A DNA stretch of 64,000 nt from an uncultured Gemmatimonadota bacterium (GTDB lineage: Bacteria > JAAXHH01). The notes beneath the pieces are model-generated. The model ran no database searches. It was not told the DNA's origin and saw only the letters and a program-made list of their open reading frames with translations. Shown here piece after piece: positions 37,049 through 46,656 of the stretch; within the stretch, counting starts at the first letter, position 1; each line of letters starts with the position of its first letter. The stretch spans positions 864,001 through 928,000 of the forward strand of contig OX638340.1 of NCBI GenBank assembly GCA_951812955.1, given 5' to 3'. A program made the position numbers and the translations under genes.

Positions 37049-38071
37049 TTGACACCTGATACCAAATCGCCGTATTTACCCCTTCATCCCGTTAATAACA
37101 ATGGCCTTGCACGGCCCGGAAAGGAACTGCTTTTGCGCGTTGTCGTTACCGGCGGTGCGGGATTCCTGGGATCCCATCTATGCGACCGTTTGCTGTCCGA
37201 CGGCCACCAGGTAGTCGCCGTCGACAATCTGATTACGGGCCGGACCGTAAATATCGCCCACAACATGGACCGCGACGGGTTCTCCTACATCCGGCAGGAC
37301 GTATCCGAGTACCTGGACATCGACGGCGACGTGGACTTCATCATGCACTTCGCCAGTCCCGCCAGTCCGGTGGATTTCGAGCGTGTGCCGATCCAGATCC
37401 TGAAAGTAGGCGCTCTGGGCACGCACAACGCGCTCGGTCTGGCCAGGGCGAAGGGCGCGGGGTTCTTCCTGGCATCCACCTCCGAGGTTTACGGCGACCC
37501 GCAGGTCAACCCGCAGCCGGAAAGCTACTGGGGCAACGTCAACCCGATCGGAGTGCGGGGCGTCTACGACGAGGCCAAGCGCTTCGCGGAGGCGCTGACC
37601 ATGGCCTACCACCGAAAGCACGGCATCGACACGCGGATCGTCAGGATCTTCAACACTTACGGTCCGCGAATGAGGCCTGCGGATGGACGGGTCGCGCCTT
37701 CTTTCATCACCAAGGCGCTCAGGGGCGAACCGCTGACTATCTTCGGAGAGGGGCGGCAGACCCGTAGTTTCTGCTATTACGAGGATCTCATGGAAGGCAT
37801 CGTGCGGCTCATGCATTCCGGCGAGCACGGACCGGTAAACATCGGAAACGAAAACGAAATTACCATACTTGAACTCGCGCGCACCATCCTCCGGCTATGC
37901 GATTCAGACAGCGAGATCGTCTTCCGGCCGCTTCCCCAGGACGATCCACAGCTTAGGCGGCCGGATACGACAAGGGCCCGGGAGATCCTGGACTGGGAAG
38001 CCCGCGTGACTCTGGATGAGGGGATGGGGAAGACCATCGAGTATTTCAGATCCAACGACGCGTCCGGCTGA
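37049..38071 (+). CDS. NAD-dependent epimerase/dehydratase, UDP-glucuronate decarboxylase (UXS)-like
   Basis: [24 protein letters not shown] and YDEAKR (YxxxK) motifs; a TTGACA-N18-TATTTA promoter lies upstream. The true start may be an internal GTG/TTG. Confidence 0.8.
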
Positions 38072-38100: not shown

Positions 38101-39138
38101 ATGACAACGACCGACGCCACGCGACCCGCCGCGGAGGAAGGACCGGGGCAAGTACGCATCGAAGCCTTCCGGGAAGGACGGGAGAAGATCCTGGCCGAAG
38201 TGCGCAAGGTAATCACCGGCCAGGAAGAGGTCCTGGAGCAGGTGCTGATCGCCCTGTTCGCGGGAGGCCACTGCCTCGTGACCGGCATGCCCGGGCTCGC
38301 AAAGACGCTGCTCATCAAGACCTTCGCACAGGTATTGGACCTGGAATTCCGGCGAATCCAGTTCACGCCCGATCTCATGCCCGCAGACATCACCGGTACC
38401 GAGATCCTGGAGGAGGACAAGGCCACCGGCCAACGTCGGCTGAATTTCATCAAGGGCCCGATATTCGGCAATATCGTGCTGGCCGATGAAATCAACCGCA
38501 CACCGCCCAAGACCCAGGCCGCCCTGCTCGAGGCCATGCAGGAGCACCGCGTGACCGCGGGCGGCACGACTTTCCAGCTGGATGAACCCTTCTTCGTCCT
38601 CGCCACCCAGAACCCCATCGAACTGGAAGGTACCTATCCCCTGCCCGAGGCCCAGCTCGACCGGTTCATGTTCAACATCCACATCGACTATCTGAAGGAA
38701 GACGACGAGGTGGCGGTAGCCCGCTCGACGACCTCCGCCGAAACGGCCTCAGTCGACACCGTACTGTCGGGCAAGGTAGTCGGGGAGTACCAGCGGCTTG
38801 TCAGGGAAGTCCTTGTCTCCGAGCAGGTTGCGCGGTACGCCGTACGCCTGGCATCCTCGAGCAGACCCTCCAGAGGGGAAGCGCCGGATTTCGTCGAAAA
38901 CTGGGTTTCGTGGGGGGCCGGCCTGCGCGCCTCCCAGTACCTGATCCTGGGCGCCAAGGCCAGGGCGCTGCTCGACGGCCGGGGACACGTTTCCTGCGAC
39001 GACATCCGATCACTCGCCCATCCGGTCCTGCGCCATCGCATCCTGACGAATTTCTACGCAGAGGCGGAGAAGATAACGCCCGAACACATCGTAGATCGGC
39101 TGCTCGGCACCGTTCCGGCGCCGCAGTCCGGCATGTAA
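38101..39138 (+). CDS. MoxR-family AAA+ ATPase
   Basis: LVTGMPGLAKT Walker A, VLADEINR Walker B/sensor, about 345 aa. Confidence 0.9.
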   Translation: MTTTDATRPAAEEGPGQVRIEAFREGREKILAEVRKVITGQEEVLEQVLIALFAGGHCLVTGMPGLAKTLLIKTFAQVLDLEFRRIQFTPDLMPADITGTEILEEDKATGQRRLNFIKGPIFGNIVLADEINRTPPKTQAALLEAMQEHRVTAGGTTFQLDEPFFVLATQNPIELEGTYPLPEAQLDRFMFNIHIDYLKEDDEVAVARSTTSAETASVDTVLSGKVVGEYQRLVREVLVSEQVARYAVRLASSSRPSRGEAPDFVENWVSWGAGLRASQYLILGAKARALLDGRGHVSCDDIRSLAHPVLRHRILTNFYAEAEKITPEHIVDRLLGTVPAPQSGM

Positions 39139-39166: not shown

Positions 39167-40096
39167 ATGGCTGAAATCCCGCGGTTTTTGGATCCGAATA
39201 CCCTTTCCCGCCTGTCCTCGATGGAGATGCGCGCCCGCATCGTGGTCGAAGGATTCGTGTCTGGTCTCCACAAGAGCCCATACCGGGGTTTCGGCGTTGA
39301 GTTCGTGGAATACAGGCAGTATACGCCGGGCGACGACGTCCGGCACGTGGATTGGAAAACCGTGGCGCGGTCGGACCGGTACTATGTCAAGGAATACGAG
39401 GACGAAACCAACCTGCAGTGCGTGCTATTGCTCGATTGCAGCGCGTCCATGGGTTATCGCTCCGGGCAGTCCGGGCGGTCAGGGCAGTCCGGGCCGTCAG
39501 GCGGATTGGACAAGCTCGAATACGGTTCGTACCTGGCGGCGTCCCTGGCGCATCTGATCATGCGGCAGGGAGACGGCGTGGGCCTCGTCACCTTCGACCA
39601 GGCCGTCCGGGATTATCTTCCGCCCAGTTCGAAGAACACCCAGCTGCCGGCCATTCACACCATGCTCGATGGACTGCGCGCCTCCGAAGGGACCGATATC
39701 GGCAAACCCCTGCATGAACTTGCCGAATCGATATCCAGGCGGGGACTGGTCATCCTGATTTCCGATCTGATCGATGACGTCGATGAAATGATGAATGCCC
39801 TGATGCACTTCCGTTTCAAGGGACACGAGGTGCTGGTGTTCCATATCGTCGACCGGGAAGAACTCGACTTCTCCTTCACGGAGACGGCAAGATTCGACGA
39901 TCCAGAGACCGGCGAGCGAATCACGGTCACGCCTTCGGCCATTCGCGAAGACTATATGGATGCCGTTCAGACGTTCATGGAGTCGATCAGGACCGGTTGC
40001 GCGAAGATCAAGGTCGACTACGAGCGCATGGAAACCGAAAGACCGCTGGATTACGCGCTGTTCTCCTATCTGAGCAGGCGCACGGTGAAGCAATAG
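39167..40096 (+). CDS. DUF58 protein (vWA-like, MoxR partner)
   Basis: GxEFxxxRxY-type N-terminal motif (YRGFGVEFVEYRQYTPGDDVRHVDW), about 309 aa. It carries an in-frame SGQSGRSGQSGPSG mini-repeat. Confidence 0.8.
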   Translation: MAEIPRFLDPNTLSRLSSMEMRARIVVEGFVSGLHKSPYRGFGVEFVEYRQYTPGDDVRHVDWKTVARSDRYYVKEYEDETNLQCVLLLDCSASMGYRSGQSGRSGQSGPSGGLDKLEYGSYLAASLAHLIMRQGDGVGLVTFDQAVRDYLPPSSKNTQLPAIHTMLDGLRASEGTDIGKPLHELAESISRRGLVILISDLIDDVDEMMNALMHFRFKGHEVLVFHIVDREELDFSFTETARFDDPETGERITVTPSAIREDYMDAVQTFMESIRTGCAKIKVDYERMETERPLDYALFSYLSRRTVKQ

Positions 40097-40122: not shown

Positions 40123-42195
40123 ATGGATCTGGCCTTCCTCAACGTTACTTTTCTCTTTGCGGCCCTGGGCGCGGCGATACCGCTGATCCTGCATCTGGTC
40201 AGAAGACAGCGGGCCGGGATCCATGTCTTCAGCATGGTCCGTTTCCTCGTCTCGACCCAGCGGGCCGTCGTTCGCCAGCAGAAAATCCGGCGACTGCTGC
40301 TGCTGCTGCTTCGCATGGCGGCCTGCGCGCTCCTGGCCGTGATATTCGCACGGCCCTTCGTCCGGGATCAGAACGAATCCTTCTTTACGGGCACCCAGCC
40401 TGAAGCCGTGGCGATACTGGTCGATACTTCCTACAGCATGGGATACGGGAATCGCCTCGCCCTGGCCAGGCGCAGGGCCGCGGAAGTCGTGAACACGTTG
40501 CAAACCGGCGACCAGGTCGCCCTGCTGACCTTCGCCGTTCAGGCCAGGGTCGTGCGGGAACTCGGGCCGGACCATTCCGGATTGCCCGCCCTGTTGGACA
40601 CCGGGATCAATTCGACTTTCGAAGGAACGGACTACGTTGAAGCGCTGCGCGCCGCCGACGATCAACTGAGCGGGGCGGACTTCGACAAACGCACCCTCTA
40701 CCTGGTGTCCGATTTTCAGCAGTCCGGCTGGAATCCGCGGTCGGCCGGATGGAAACTCAGTCCGGGCGTTCAGCTCAGGCTGATCGACGTCGGGGACGAG
40801 CAGGATGGCAATACGGCCGTCACCGGGGTGGAAATACCGGCCGCGCTCTCGGGCGAGAACCGGACGCTCGACGTGGTCGTCCGGGTCCGGAACTACGGGC
40901 AGGCGCCTGTCCGGGACGAACTCACGCTTCGGGTCAACGGGAACGCAGTCGAGAAGCGGCTGGTCGATATTGCTCCGCACTCAGGCCGGTTGGAGAACTT
41001 CAGGCACACTTTTGAACCGGCAACGAATACGGGCGAGGTGATCCTGGGAGATGACGAGCTTCCGGTGGACAACCGGTTTTACTTCACCGTGAATGCGCCT
41101 TCTCCCGTGCGTGTTCTCTGCCTGGAGGAGCGCAGGCGCCCGAACCGGCTGTCGGAAGCCGCATACTACCTGTCCCAGGCCCTGTCGCTGCGCCAGGATC
41201 CGCCGGTCGTGGTAGATGTACGATCCCCCCGTGCGATGCCCGAAGTCGATCCCGCGCAATACGACGTGGTCATTTCGTCCAACCTTTCCGTCCTGCCACG
41301 TAGCGCGAAGACCAGGCTGACCGACTATGTACGTTCGGGCGGAAGCTTGATTATCGCCTTGAATTCCGCCGTTTCTCCCGATATATTCCATTCGTCTTTC
41401 GGCGAACTGCTGCCTGGACGCATCGAGTCTTTGTCATCCCCCGACGCCCCACGCGACCGGTACCGGCTGTTGACCGGCGTGAACTACCAGCACCCGGTCT
41501 TTCAACCCTTCTCCGGTCCCCGGCATGGTGATTTCGGCACGGTACGGTTTTACAGGACGGCTCGGTTCGATCCAGACTCCTCGTCGTCGGTTCCGGCACG
41601 GTTCGACGACGGCAGCGCCGCGGTAGCGGAGAAGTCCCTGGGAAACGGCCGCACGTTCCTGGTCCTGACTACCTTCGATCTTTCGTGGACCGACTTTCCC
41701 ATACGCGAGGTATTCGTACCTTTTCTATACGAGAGTATCGACTACCTGGCTTCCCGCGGGTCCATGCACGGACGCGGGACCGATTTGTACCGGCTGACGG
41801 GGGAGGCGGTCAGACTGCCGGAAGATGCACGGCACGTTGAAGTTCCATCCGGCGAGCGGATCCCGGCGGAAGCGTCGCAGTCGGGAACGAAGCTGTTTAC
41901 GCGGACGGAGAGACCGGGGTTGTACCAGGTACAGTCGGAAGGAGCCCAACACGCGTTCGCGGTCAACCTCGACACCCGTGAATCCGACTTTACGAGGTTG
42001 GACGTGGAATCCTTCGCGTCTGCGCTGATCAATCCCGTGGCCCGGAGCCCGGAGTCGCGGGAAACGGAGACGCTGGCCAGGCTGGCCCTGGACTCCGAAG
42101 TGGAGCGCCGCCAGCGACTCTGGTGGTTTCTCGGATTCACGCTGATCGCACTGGTCCTCGGAGAAACTTTCCTGGCAAATCGAACGCACAGGTGA
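40123..42195 (+). CDS. BatA-like protein: N-terminal double-TM anchor plus a vWA domain plus a 400-aa C-terminal extension
   Basis: Two N-terminal TM helices with a RRLLLLLLR motif, and a MIDAS DTSYSMG motif. 690 aa. Confidence 0.7.
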   Translation: MDLAFLNVTFLFAALGAAIPLILHLVRRQRAGIHVFSMVRFLVSTQRAVVRQQKIRRLLLLLLRMAACALLAVIFARPFVRDQNESFFTGTQPEAVAILVDTSYSMGYGNRLALARRRAAEVVNTLQTGDQVALLTFAVQARVVRELGPDHSGLPALLDTGINSTFEGTDYVEALRAADDQLSGADFDKRTLYLVSDFQQSGWNPRSAGWKLSPGVQLRLIDVGDEQDGNTAVTGVEIPAALSGENRTLDVVVRVRNYGQAPVRDELTLRVNGNAVEKRLVDIAPHSGRLENFRHTFEPATNTGEVILGDDELPVDNRFYFTVNAPSPVRVLCLEERRRPNRLSEAAYYLSQALSLRQDPPVVVDVRSPRAMPEVDPAQYDVVISSNLSVLPRSAKTRLTDYVRSGGSLIIALNSAVSPDIFHSSFGELLPGRIESLSSPDAPRDRYRLLTGVNYQHPVFQPFSGPRHGDFGTVRFYRTARFDPDSSSSVPARFDDGSAAVAEKSLGNGRTFLVLTTFDLSWTDFPIREVFVPFLYESIDYLASRGSMHGRGTDLYRLTGEAVRLPEDARHVEVPSGERIPAEASQSGTKLFTRTERPGLYQVQSEGAQHAFAVNLDTRESDFTRLDVESFASALINPVARSPESRETETLARLALDSEVERRQRLWWFLGFTLIALVLGETFLANRTHR

Positions 42196-42198
42196 CCC

Positions 42199-45100
42199 AT
42201 GACATCTGAACGTTCCATCCTGCAATCCTGCCTGCGCAGCGTCCTTCGCCGCTGGCGTCTCATGTTTGTCTTCCGAGGCGTCTCGGTGCTCGCGATCGCC
42301 GGAGTGATGCTATTCATTTGCGGCGTGGCGGCCCTGCATTTGTTTGACCCCGGAGTATTCGCCCGCATCCTGTTCCTGGCCGGCGCCACGGGAGCCCTCG
42401 GTTGGCTCGCATACCGGTTCCTGCTCGTTCCGCTTCGCCGAACGCCTACGGACCTGCAGGTCGCCCGTTACATCGAAGAACGGCATCCCGCCTTGAACGA
42501 CGCCTTAGTCAGCGCCGTGGAATACGGCCATGGTCATCTTCGAAGACCGCAGAAGGTCCTCATGGACCAACTTATGGCGCACGTCGCCGACTACACCGAG
42601 CAGATCGACTTCAAAAAGATCGTAGACCGGAAGCGCTACTTTACCCTCCAGGCGGCCGCTGTCGGAGCCGCCCTCGTCCTTGCCGGCCTTGTCTTCCTGG
42701 AACCCGGGTTTTTCGGCCGTTCCGCCCTTCGCCTGGTGTCGTGGACCCATGCGGAACCGGCCGTTCCCGGAGGCATCAGGGTAGAGCCCGGCGACACGCG
42801 GGTCAGGCGAGGGGAAAGCCTGGACGTTACCGCCGTACTGGGCAGCGGTCTGACCCCGGACCCGAACCTGTTCGTCCGATTCGGAAATGACGAAAACTGG
42901 TCGACGCTGGATCTATACGAGACGGATGGCGAACGGACCTTCTCGAACCGCATCCACGGCATCAGCGAGGACGCCCTGTATTACGTCGCCGTGACCGGAA
43001 CCCGGTCGAAAGAATTCCACATTGCAGCGATCGATCCGCCCTATGTCGAACGGATCGACGCCCGGTATGTCTTCCCGGCATACACGGAGCTGGCCGCGAA
43101 GGTCGAGGAAGACCGCGGGGACATTACGGCGCCGGTGGACACGCGGGTCGCCCTGCGCATCACTGCGAGCAAGGCGGTGCGTTCCGCCGAGATGCGCTTC
43201 AGCAACGGTCGCGCGTTGGAACTCGCGGTTACCGGGTCAGACCTCGAGGGATCATTCGTCGTGCGAGAGGATCTCTCCTATTCCATACACCTGGTGGACT
43301 CGGACGACTTCGCAAATGACGACCCGGTGGAATACTACGTCCGGGCGCTGCAGGACCGGGCGCCCCGGGTGACCATCCTCGAACCGAAGCGGGATACACG
43401 GGTATCCCCTGTCGATGAGGTGACCATTCGCGCCGAGGCCGTGGATGATTTCGGCCTATCGACCTTCTCTCTCAATTACGCGGTGAACGGCGGCGAGGAA
43501 GTCCTGGTGGACCTGGGTGCGCTGCAGGACGAATCGAGCGGCACGGTCTGGGAAGGGGAACATGTGGTCTACCTGGAGAATCTTTCGGTCCAGCCGGGCG
43601 ATTTCGTCGCCTATTACGCGGAGGCGGGTGATCGCCGGAGCGAGGGCGGCACGTCCGCGACGGACATTTACTTTATCGAAATCACGCCTTTCGATGCGTC
43701 CTACCGGCAGGGCGAGGGCGGAAGCGGTGGCGGAGGAGGAGGTGCCGGGAACGACGTGATGCAGACGAGACAGCTTTCTCGCAAGCAGAAGGAGATCATC
43801 TCGGCCACGTGGCGCGTAAAGAGAACGCTCGCGTCAGTCCCCGGGACGGAGGTAGCGGAAGACCTCGAAGCGATCGCCGAGGTCCAGGACGCACTTAGGA
43901 GCCAGGCGGATGAAGCGCTCGCGTTCATGCGGTTCACGGTCGGGATTTCGAGCGAGTCCATGGAAATGGTCGAAATGCTGGAGCTGGCGCTGGAACCGAT
44001 GTCGGCCGCCTCCGAAGCACTGCGGTCCGGTTCGGTCGACGATGCCCTGGTCCACGAGCGTTTAGCGCTTATGTACCTCACGAGGCTCGATGCGCTGATG
44101 CGGGATTTTACTGTGAACAGGGCACGCGGCATGGCGGGCAGGGCTCCGCTGGACTTCTCCGACACCTCCGAACTCGAGCTGGAGGATGAAAGGAACAGGT
44201 ACGAGGTACCCGATCAGCCGGCCCTGGATCGCCAGAGGGAGCGGAGCATCGAAGAGCACCATCAACGTGTCCAGGACCTGGCCCGGCGCCAACAACAACT
44301 GAATAACCAGCTCCGGGAGCTGACGGAGGTGGAAGATCGCCAGGAAGCCGAACGCCGCAGGGAATTGGACCGCCTGACCAGGACGCAGCGTGAGCTCAGG
44401 GAAGAGACGGAGGAAATCGCGCGATCGCTCTCCGGGAACCGGACCGATCCGGCCAATCGGGACCCGCGATCGGGCTCCCCCGGTCCCATGCTGGAGCAAG
44501 CGAACCAGGATCTGCGTGACAGTTCCGAGTCGATGGGCGAAACGATCGAGCAACTGCGCAGGAACCAGCTGCGGCCAGCAGCGGAAGACGGCGCTCAGAC
44601 CGCACAGCATCTGGCCGACGCGTCCAGACAACTGAAGCGTGCGCAGGGGGAGTCGCTGGAGCGGCTGGCGAGGGAAGCGGCTAGACAGGCGGATCAGCTG
44701 GCTGTCCGGCAGGAACAACTCGAACGGAACGTCAACGCGTTGAAAGAGGAGAAGGATAACGGCTTCGAGGGCATCATCAACCGTTTGGACGCGATCGAAT
44801 CGCGGCGCGGCGGCCTGGACCTGGAGTCGGATACGCGGCGCCTGGACCGGTTTGTGCGCGAACGGTTGAGGGGGGTCGAAGCGGCAAAGGACGAAATCCG
44901 TTCCGATCTCGAACGGCTAGAGAGCGACCTGGACCACCTCGCCCGGAGTTCGTCCCGTGCGCAGGCCGGGACGGCGGCAGCCGCGGATCGGGCCAGCGAG
45001 ATGATCGATGACGAGCGGTTGAAAGAACAGATCGAGCAATCGAAGCGCCTTTTGAGACGGGACACCCTGGACCAGTCCGCCCTCAGGGAGTCGGAAATCT

Positions 45101-45624
45101 CCGAAGCAATGGACCGGCTGGCGGAACAGGTCCGTACCGCGCGGGACAAGCTGATTACCCGGGACATGGATCATCTGTCCCGTACGCAGGAAAGCGCTCG
45201 GGATGCCATGTCCGAATGGCAGAACCTCCAACGGCAGCTATTCAGATTGAACCGCGGCATTCCCAATTCCGAGACCCTGGACCAGATTTCCCGGGATTAC
45301 CAGCGTCAGTTGCAGCGTCTGCGGGATCTTTCGGGTCAGGTTCCGCAGATGTCCGGAGAAACGCGGCAGTTGCAGAACGACCTGGACCGAGCGCTCGCCC
45401 TCGGCAATGAACCGTGGAAGATCGACCGGGGCCAATGGAACGAACTCCATCTCAACCTGGCCCGCAGTCTCGGTGATTTCTACGACGGGCTGCGCGCGGA
45501 GGTACGGGATATGCGCCGCAAGGAGCGTCTCTACCTGGCCAGGGAAGAGGATGTACCCCCGGGATACAGGGACCTCGTGAATGACTATTTCGAGAAGCTC
45601 TCAAAAAACGGGGACAGCAACTGA
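42199..45624 (+). CDS. Large (1141 aa) membrane-anchored protein, DUF4175-like: 2 TM, a beta-rich region, a Gly-rich hinge and a ~600-aa charged coiled coil
   Basis: TM helices at residues about 20-75. Gly run GEGGSGGGGGGAGND at about 43711-43752. The C-terminal half is dominated by R/E/Q/L/D heptad-like sequence. It is the last gene of the MoxR-DUF58-vWA module. Confidence 0.5.
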   Translation: MTSERSILQSCLRSVLRRWRLMFVFRGVSVLAIAGVMLFICGVAALHLFDPGVFARILFLAGATGALGWLAYRFLLVPLRRTPTDLQVARYIEERHPALNDALVSAVEYGHGHLRRPQKVLMDQLMAHVADYTEQIDFKKIVDRKRYFTLQAAAVGAALVLAGLVFLEPGFFGRSALRLVSWTHAEPAVPGGIRVEPGDTRVRRGESLDVTAVLGSGLTPDPNLFVRFGNDENWSTLDLYETDGERTFSNRIHGISEDALYYVAVTGTRSKEFHIAAIDPPYVERIDARYVFPAYTELAAKVEEDRGDITAPVDTRVALRITASKAVRSAEMRFSNGRALELAVTGSDLEGSFVVREDLSYSIHLVDSDDFANDDPVEYYVRALQDRAPRVTILEPKRDTRVSPVDEVTIRAEAVDDFGLSTFSLNYAVNGGEEVLVDLGALQDESSGTVWEGEHVVYLENLSVQPGDFVAYYAEAGDRRSEGGTSATDIYFIEITPFDASYRQGEGGSGGGGGGAGNDVMQTRQLSRKQKEIISATWRVKRTLASVPGTEVAEDLEAIAEVQDALRSQADEALAFMRFTVGISSESMEMVEMLELALEPMSAASEALRSGSVDDALVHERLALMYLTRLDALMRDFTVNRARGMAGRAPLDFSDTSELELEDERNRYEVPDQPALDRQRERSIEEHHQRVQDLARRQQQLNNQLRELTEVEDRQEAERRRELDRLTRTQRELREETEEIARSLSGNRTDPANRDPRSGSPGPMLEQANQDLRDSSESMGETIEQLRRNQLRPAAEDGAQTAQHLADASRQLKRAQGESLERLAREAARQADQLAVRQEQLERNVNALKEEKDNGFEGIINRLDAIESRRGGLDLESDTRRLDRFVRERLRGVEAAKDEIRSDLERLESDLDHLARSSSRAQAGTAAAADRASEMIDDERLKEQIEQSKRLLRRDTLDQSALRESEISEAMDRLAEQVRTARDKLITRDMDHLSRTQESARDAMSEWQNLQRQLFRLNRGIPNSETLDQISRDYQRQLQRLRDLSGQVPQMSGETRQLQNDLDRALALGNEPWKIDRGQWNELHLNLARSLGDFYDGLRAEVRDMRRKERLYLAREEDVPPGYRDLVNDYFEKLSKNGDSN

Positions 45625-45675: not shown

Positions 45676-46656
45676 ATGCCCACCGCATTGATCAGCCATC
45701 CCGATCTCCTGCTGCACGACACAGGCTCCTTCCATCCCGAACGGCCGGAGCGCATTACGTCCGTTCTTTCCCACCTCGGCGTGTCCGGCGACGAATCCAG
45801 CAACGAATCCGGCGACGAATCCCCCGGCACGAACCGGACCGGCCTGGTGCGCCTGTCGCCGTCCGCAGCCGATGAAGCCCGGATCAAGGCCGTCCACGAT
45901 GCGTCGTATGTCGACGCGGTAGCGGCGTGGTGCGCGGAAGGGTACCGGATTCTGCCCACCGGGGACACGACCCTTTCTTCCGCATCCGAGACCGTGGCCC
46001 GAATGGCTGCCGGCGCGGCAATACGAGCCGTCGACGCGGTACTGTCCAGGGAAGCGGACCGGGCATTCTGTGCCATCCGTCCTCCCGGGCATCATGCCGA
46101 ATCCGACCGGGGGATGGGCTTCTGCATCTACAACAACGCCGCCGTCGCGGCCCGTTACGCCCAGTCCCGCTTCGGGGTGGAACGGGTGGTCATCCTGGAC
46201 TGGGATGTCCACCACGGTAACGGGACCCAGGAGATTTTCGAGGACGACCCGTCCGTGTACTATATCAGCGTTCACCAGTCACCGCTCTATCCCTTTACCG
46301 GTGCTATGTGGGAAAAGGGCAGGGGAGAAGGGACGGGGTACACGATGAACGTCCCGGTTGCCGCGGGGTCCGGCGACGCGGTTTTCGTCGACGTGCTGCG
46401 CGGGCAGGTCATCCCGGCCATGAAGTCCTACCAACCGGATCTCCTCATTCTATCGGCGGGATTCGACGCCCACGTGGACGACCCGCTGTCCGGTACCCTG
46501 GTCACCGACGCGGGATTCCAGACCATGTCGCGCATCCTGATGGACTTCGTGGACGACGCCTGCGGGGGCCGCCTCGTATCCCTGCTGGAGGGCGGTTATG
46601 ATCTTGAAGTCCTGGGCCGGTGCGTCGCGGACCACGTAGGCATGATGGCGTCCTGA
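45676..46656 (+). CDS. Histone-deacetylase-family (AcuC/HDAC-like) deacetylase
   Basis: Motifs GFCIYNNAA, DWDVHHGNGTQ and GGGY. It has a small SGDESSNESGDES repeat insert. Confidence 0.85.
   Translation: MPTALISHPDLLLHDTGSFHPERPERITSVLSHLGVSGDESSNESGDESPGTNRTGLVRLSPSAADEARIKAVHDASYVDAVAAWCAEGYRILPTGDTTLSSASETVARMAAGAAIRAVDAVLSREADRAFCAIRPPGHHAESDRGMGFCIYNNAAVAARYAQSRFGVERVVILDWDVHHGNGTQEIFEDDPSVYYISVHQSPLYPFTGAMWEKGRGEGTGYTMNVPVAAGSGDAVFVDVLRGQVIPAMKSYQPDLLILSAGFDAHVDDPLSGTLVTDAGFQTMSRILMDFVDDACGGRLVSLLEGGYDLEVLGRCVADHVGMMAS

Follow-up and report, generated by a model that had tools for sequence, protein, structure and literature searches.

A DUF4175-family membrane protein encoded behind MoxR, DUF58 and BatA-type genes in Gemmatimonadota: a candidate partner of an AAA+/VWA machine

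Introduction

Why would a MoxR operon end in a membrane protein of 1141 residues? The question is raised by a 64,000-nucleotide stretch of DNA from an uncultured Gemmatimonadota bacterium (GenBank assembly GCA_951812955.1, contig OX638340.1, positions 864,001 to 928,000), hereafter the window. Here a gene of the DUF4175 family (42199-45624, forward strand) directly follows genes for a MoxR-type AAA+ ATPase, a DUF58 protein and a BatA-type protein. MoxR genes head operons that include DUF58, VWA and TPR genes, and operons of the MRP type affect stress tolerance (PMC11834572). The Arc2 MoxR/VWA cluster protects P. aeruginosa against a pore-forming toxin (PMC8926400), and the Rhizobium MoxR operon RL3499-RL3502 is tied to envelope integrity by the title of a cited study. 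An initial annotation of the window described the DUF4175 product as unusual in its architecture, with two membrane helices, a mixed region, a poly-Gly hinge and a very long charged coiled coil.

Here we describe the sequence anatomy, family membership, conservation, model fold class and gene linkage of this protein. We found that it is full-length and typical for the known, very large and functionally unexplained DUF4175 family. We propose, with middling confidence, that DUF4175 is a membrane-spanning structural partner or client of a MoxR AAA+/VWA machine in the cell envelope.

Results

The protein is a typical member of the DUF4175 family

The open reading frame (ORF) at 42199-45624 is intact, as first called, and comprises 1141 codons; the reverse strand opposite it is full of stop codons, and a search for DNA tandem repeats in the gene found none. 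The initial annotation had guessed DUF4175, and the guess was right: residues 175-514 score 35.8 bits (E 3.3e-9) against PF13779, for which the cutoff is 27.3, in a match that covers just model positions 184-324 of 825. The full-length protein gave no DUF4175 match in Pfam even at E<=10, only a sub-threshold match to Big_7, and we suspect that HMMER composition filters are behind the miss. About a quarter of the close homologs are without a precomputed PF13779 label, a pitfall for annotation.

Does the homology extend over the whole protein? A homology search returned 149 proteins, mostly of 1120-1200 residues and from Gemmatimonadota and Acidobacteriota, and most of them labelled PF13779. Among the 120 homologs listed, most have PF13779 and can be aligned with 60-100% of the query, and invariant residues are spread over the entire length of the protein. 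When 1.84 billion representatives of 50%-identity clusters were searched with a profile, 26,952 matched at E<=1e-3, of which 20,177 also passed E<=1e-10 and 9,999 passed E<=1e-30. The top-ranking 150 match end to end, are mostly 1100-1300 residues long and share with the window protein three membrane segments, an immunoglobulin (Ig)-like region, a Gly linker and a helical half. The layout that had been singled out as unusual is the standard of a family of roughly 10,000 clusters, as judged from these best 150. Relatives are encoded in at least 573 species genomes of Gemmatimonadota, Acidobacteriota and Rhodothermales, and the window has 97% protein-level identity to the Gemmatimonadetes metagenome-assembled genome APA_bin_41. 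A long Gly/Gln-rich insertion near residue 1016-1025, which Acidobacteriota members have, is missing from the window's clade. Four related loci (L007, L016, L018 and L020) are labelled 'Candidatus Latescibacterota', at 74-77% protein identity and with the gene order of the Gemmatimonadota loci; the taxonomic labels of those metagenome-assembled genomes look inconsistent.

Two other groups of membrane proteins invite comparison. The TIGR02302 family consists of alphaproteobacterial low-complexity membrane proteins; like AdvA of Acinetobacter baumannii, these are membrane-anchored and tied to envelope or division functions (PMC9275681 for TIGR02302, PMC7481262 for AdvA). No NCBIfam model, TIGR02302 included, matched the whole protein, three fragments of it or two of its homologs (P0036 and P0104). 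AdvA is a different, shorter protein, whose DUF4175 annotation is N-terminal only, ahead of residues 203-238 and beside two predicted membrane helices. Homology to the DUF4175 protein is demonstrated for neither.

DUF4175 is linked to an AAA+/VWA gene pair across phyla

DUF4175 is the last gene of an operon of four:

38101-39138, forward strand: MoxR-type AAA+ ATPase, 345 residues, the operon's first gene (Pfam AAA_3, E 3e-63; AAA_lid_2)
39167-40096, forward strand: DUF58 protein, 309 residues, VWA-like, with the DxSxS motif of MIDAS, the metal ion-dependent adhesion site (Pfam DUF58, E 4e-48; VWA_2)
40123-42195, forward strand: BatA-type protein, 690 residues (Pfam BatA, E 3e-14; VWA_2; TIGR02226 two_anch)
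42199-45624, forward strand: DUF4175-family protein, 1141 residues (ORF; PF13779 match of residues 175-514)

The genes are separated by 28, 26 and 3 nucleotides, the DUF4175 ATG lying 3 nucleotides past the BatA-type stop codon. The MoxR and DUF58 proteins contain no hydrophobic segment, and DUF58 is therefore predicted to be cytoplasmic. The BatA-type protein has an N-terminal pair of transmembrane (TM) helices (8-26 and 58-76) in an N-out layout, a VWA domain with a MIDAS, a GATase1-like middle and a C-terminal TM segment (666-684), so that its body of about 590 residues would be tethered at both ends. Topology mapping of a Borrelia BatA-type homolog, BB0173, is compatible with a VWA domain that faces the periplasm (PMC5700661). 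The middle region of the window's protein gives weak matches to GATase1-like folds (Glyco_hydro_42M, ThuA), a fold class in common with the DUF4159 and GATase1_like genes of the larger cluster described below.

How general is this linkage? Of 65 related loci with sufficient upstream sequence, 60 show MoxR, DUF58 and BatA immediately upstream of the homolog on its own strand, and 62 have MoxR upstream. The MIDAS motif DxSxS is intact in 68/68 BatA-type and 67/67 DUF58 neighbors. An exceptional Blastocatellia locus (L052, 6879-13852) carries a ChlI-like AAA+ protein (372 residues) and a ChlD-like AAA+-VWA fusion (630 residues) ahead of a homolog that keeps all three conserved motifs of the family (cytoplasmic, periplasmic-acidic and C-terminal). 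This looks like a non-orthologous replacement of the AAA+/VWA partner. Since upstream linkage holds in 60 of 65 loci and one exception brings an AAA+/VWA pair of its own, the association of DUF4175 with such a pair looks functional and not accidental.

In Acidobacteriota and most Gemmatimonadota the genes belong to a cluster of eight: GATase1_like, a protein of about 350 residues, TPR/Peptidase_MA_2, DUF4159, MoxR, DUF58, BatA and DUF4175. Its last four genes are the window operon in order and strand. The full cluster is present in the cultured strain Gemmatirosa kalamazoonensis KBS708, on the 1.1-Mb plasmid 1 (NZ_CP007129.1, about 725-751 kb; L084:541-13935).

The first three genes also follow the order of Bat or MRP-subfamily MoxR operons (MoxR AAA_3, DUF58, BatA-type VWA). 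However, Bat operons carry BatB, BatC, BatD or BatE where the window operon has DUF4175, and a Pfam scan of eight ORFs around the operon found neither TPR nor BatD domains. We also rejected two other assignments. Equivalence of the DUF4175 protein to BatD fails for want of a PF13584 match. A role in anti-phage defence was set aside on marginal PADLOC matches (E 1e-3 to 2e-3, 14-16 bits) and a linkage of housekeeping type across phyla.

The window's own clade (14-16 loci, 73-97% identity) has the four-gene core only and lacks the other four genes of the cluster. In this clade the core always lies between the same two flanking genes, which in the window are:

37049-38071: NAD-dependent sugar epimerase/dehydratase, upstream flank
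45676-46656: histone-deacetylase-family gene, downstream flank

A scan of 36.8-46.8 kb for promoters and terminators gave counts not above those in shuffled sequence, and neither a tRNA scan nor an Rfam scan of the window returned anything.

The C-terminal half is modelled as tandem helical bundles

What is the long charged half of the protein? Its last 620 residues or so are, as the initial annotation had it, highly charged (37%) and rich in R (14%), L (12%) and E (12%), with A and D also abundant. The repeated ERL/RQL/LRE-type patterns are real as well: there are 31 such tripeptides, against 12.7 +/- 3.6 in 1000 composition-preserving shuffles, none of which reached 31. To examine the fold, we used AlphaFold2 on the whole protein with a 113-sequence alignment (mean predicted local distance difference test score, pLDDT, 80.3; predicted template modelling score, pTM, 0.41) and on residues 522-1141 (pLDDT 83.3, pTM 0.51). 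By DSSP, residues 518-1136 are almost all helix in both models. The following features were resolved:

43711-43755, forward strand: Gly-rich hinge GEGGSGGGGGGAGND, residues 505-519 (pLDDT <50 over residues 500-521)
43765-44133, forward strand: first four-helix bundle (helices 523-546, 553-580, 585-609 and 613-644), holding the invariant residues Q530, T537, Q563, M601 and E620
44134-44214, forward strand: acidic linear motif segment, residues 646-672, modelled as disordered (pLDDT <50 in both models)
44215-45546, forward strand: further helical region, residues 673-1116, with about 13 helices, read as about three more four-helix bundles
45547-45606, forward strand: C-terminal helix motif V-P-x-x-Y-R-x-L-V-x-x-Y-Y/F-x-x-L-S, residues 1117-1136, recognized by conservation

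The models and the composition thus uphold an all-alpha, charged half behind a flexible hinge. Comparison with the homologs supports the hinge too, which is modelled as disordered: 94 of the 113 aligned homologs have a linker of at least 40% Gly there, the linker is 9-20 residues long, and a run of four or more G occurs in 78 of the 113. A few homologs have S/T/A/D-rich sequence in its place.

The single coiled coil of about 600 residues proposed earlier is not supported. Instead of one rod, AlphaFold2 gives 17-18 short antiparallel helices of 10-63 residues each, placed identically in the two models. We read the C-terminal half as approximately four tandem four-helix bundles linked by long shared helices, a count that comes from the modelled helix lengths. 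An internal duplication is suggested by the likeness (hhalign 85%) between residues 760-816 and helices 3-4 of the first bundle.

An extended, probably oligomeric coiled-coil rod that serves as a passive periplasmic ruler or spacer nevertheless has some points in its favor. The half is all-helical and 37% charged, and it has the helix content and amphipathic periodicity of a coiled coil, with a modest excess of hydrophobic residues at heptad positions a and d (0.625 versus 0.536 +/- 0.014 in shuffles). In a sequence profile search of the PDB, all matches were to coiled-coil-like or designed helical proteins, such as designed bundles, SNAP-25 and apolipoprotein, and we judged them compositional. 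Moreover, AlphaFold2 run on a monomer could misfold an oligomeric coiled coil back onto itself, and the pTM values reach just 0.41-0.51. However, one continuous helix of hundreds of residues in unbroken heptad register, as expected of a long coiled coil, is not what we find. The best register shifts repeatedly, every few windows, along the C-terminal half. Loops containing P or G separate the helices at the same places in both models, and it is between helices that insertion hot spots and low-complexity linkers occur. Together with the invariant polar residues and the conserved disordered motif described below, which point to specific contacts rather than to a spacer, these observations make a coiled-coil rod improbable.

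No known globular family was found to align with this half: searches of Pfam, NCBIfam and PDB sequences gave compositional matches only, and Foldseek against the PDB returned 0 matches at E<=1e-3 for the C-terminal half. The rods of talin, vinculin and alpha-catenin are chains of four- or five-helix bundles. All three gave the best multi-bundle Foldseek analogies, led by the force-sensing region of alpha-N-catenin (5xfl, target-normalised TM-score 0.42). The likeness is one of fold only; at 5-15% identity and Foldseek E >0.06 there is no evidence of homology, and these proteins are eukaryotic, cytoplasmic and actin-linked.

The helical half is conserved and carries linear motifs

Is the helical half conserved in sequence, or in composition only? 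We measured conservation in a 27-sequence alignment (A1) and in a weighted 113-sequence profile, and compared 18 segments of the protein by mean consensus frequency. The helical half reaches 0.58-0.68, nearly equal to the Ig-like domains at 0.62-0.73, and Q530, T537, Q563, M601, E620, Y668, E669, R697, Q698, Q730 and M779 are invariant within it. The acidic segment has the highest mean consensus frequency of the 18 segments (0.76), despite its modelled disorder. Its consensus, D-L-x-D-L-F-E-L-E-L-x4-N-x-Y-E at residues 652-669, includes the invariant pair Y668 and E669, along with D652 (0.91) and E660 (0.90), and many homologs have a second poly-Gly linker ahead of it. In the C-terminal helix motif, P1120 and Y1130 are invariant in A1 and both stand at 0.94 in the weighted profile; P1120 and L1134 come close to invariance there. 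Because the sequence is conserved, with invariant residues and three motifs in the protein, the helical half is not purely a compositional spacer.

A third membrane segment would place most of the protein in the periplasm

On which side of the membrane would the helical half lie? Hydropathy analysis revealed three membrane segments rather than the two first described, and the N-terminal part resolves into the following features:

42280-42423, forward strand: membrane hairpin of TM1 (28-46) and TM2 (53-75), with an Arg-rich N-tail ahead of it (Kyte-Doolittle maxima 2.63 and 1.64)
42424-42642, forward strand: predicted cytoplasmic helical loop, residues 76-148 (K+R-rich flanks; helical in AlphaFold2)
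42643-42699, forward strand: third membrane segment (TM3), residues 149-167 (Kyte-Doolittle 2.12; model helix 144-167)
42775-43689, forward strand: three tandem Ig-like beta-sandwiches, residues ~193-280, 281-388 and 389-497 (AlphaFold2, hhalign)

The mixed region of about 430 residues described earlier comprises a conserved loop of about 70 residues (76-148), TM3 and three beta-sandwich domains. The sandwiches (residues 193-497) are modelled at a pLDDT of about 90, and hhalign relates the first to the second (86%) and to the third (46%).

The TM1-TM2 hairpin is kept in 113/113 aligned homologs, and the third segment exceeds a Kyte-Doolittle value of 1.5 in 112/113. Across the 113 homologs, the median number of K+R is 6 for the N-tail's final 15 residues and 1 for the loop between TM1 and TM2; it is 7 in the flanks of the 76-146 loop and 1 in the 15 residues past TM3. 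On this K+R distribution (the positive-inside rule) and the three segments, residues ~168-1141, or about 970 residues, are predicted to be exported to the periplasm, with the N-terminus and the 76-148 loop in the cytoplasm. The loop carries a motif of its own, D85-x-Q-V-A-R-Y-I-E-E-R-x-P97, in which A89 is invariant, with E93 at 0.96 and P97 at 0.91 in the weighted profile. The suggestion of a periplasm-spanning rod is thus plausible as to compartment, though by way of a third segment that had been overlooked; with only two membrane segments, the rod would be cytoplasmic.

Could TM1 and TM2 nonetheless be the only membrane spans, with everything after them, the helical half included, a cytoplasmic scaffold for MoxR and DUF58? 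Those two partners have no membrane segment, and the alternative AAA+/VWA pair at the Blastocatellia locus appears soluble too. Arg/Glu-rich helices and the absence of Cys beyond residue 41 are also common among cytoplasmic proteins. We consider this arrangement quite unlikely, since the third segment is strongly hydrophobic (2.12) and remains so in the homologs, and Lys and Arg are scarce just past it and abundant before it. Tandem Ig-like domains are moreover typical of extracytoplasmic proteins, and the adjoining BatA-type protein would put its VWA domain outside, according to its membrane layout and the Borrelia precedent (PMC5700661).

Discussion

How might such a protein work with a MoxR AAA+/VWA machine? 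The Arg-rich N-terminus and membrane hairpin would hold the conserved loop of about 70 residues in the cytoplasm, and TM3 would lead the remaining ~970 residues into the periplasm. The exported part may then form a jointed stalk of three Ig-like domains, the Gly hinge and about four four-helix bundles, interrupted by the acidic linear motif and ending in the conserved terminal helix. DUF4175 would thus be a periplasmic scaffold, anchored in the inner membrane, that MoxR and the VWA proteins assemble, hold or remodel. This topology, an interaction with VWA proteins and a role in the envelope are what we infer from the anatomy and linkage described above.

MIDAS sites bind acidic ligands, as is established for integrin I-domains. 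The DUF4175 protein has two conserved acidic segments, predicted to lie on opposite sides of the membrane, and these are candidates for binding to the operon's two MIDAS sites. With one VWA protein and one acidic segment predicted per side, the most economical specific model has both VWA proteins holding DUF4175, a candidate interaction. A more ambitious version of the model, which we put forward as a long shot, makes DUF4175 a connector that is gripped on both membrane sides by MIDAS sites and acts as an energised envelope tether or mechanotransducer across thousands of diderm species. On the cytoplasmic side, the VWA domain of DUF58, and through it the MoxR AAA+ ring, would be bound by the loop motif (D85...E93-E94), while the periplasmic acidic motif (D652...E660...Y668-E669) would bind the BatA-type VWA domain. 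A jointed stalk that spans the periplasm, made of Ig domains and talin-like four-helix bundles, could in this way be assembled, put under tension or remodelled in a manner coupled to cytoplasmic ATP hydrolysis.

Several observations weigh against a structural partner of the MoxR/VWA machine. The predicted topology comes from hydropathy and charge rules alone, and the arrangement of the domains relative to one another is uncertain at pTM values of 0.41 and 0.51. One homolog (at locus L080) is an orphan, with no AAA+/VWA neighbor within 10 kb. A tblastn search of the 64-kb window found none of the other cluster genes (DUF4159, GATase1_like, the ~350-residue protein and TPR/Peptidase_MA_2). Finally, no experiment on a DUF4175 protein of this type exists; in the four papers found to name the family, AdvA is the sole bacterial case.

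A periplasmic sensor would recognise a ligand or envelope stress through one or more of its bundles, like the sensor domains of chemoreceptors or NarQ, and pass the signal across the membrane to the cytoplasmic loop for control of MoxR/DUF58. This reading agrees with the conservation of that loop, but it has only a slim chance, as there is no recognised cytoplasmic output domain and four bundles with three Ig domains far exceed known sensors.

The window protein is itself routine; it is no new kind of element, and its value lies in annotation and in testable hypotheses. The family gains a domain map that comprises three membrane segments, a loop motif, three Ig domains, a hinge, helical bundles, and acidic and C-terminal motifs. 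Few bacterial gene clusters that lack a mechanism are as widespread as MoxR/DUF58/VWA ("Bat-like") operons, and DUF4175 is one of the largest and most conserved components of such operons in Acidobacteriota and Gemmatimonadota. Since Gemmatirosa kalamazoonensis is in culture and has the complete cluster, it could serve as an experimental model.

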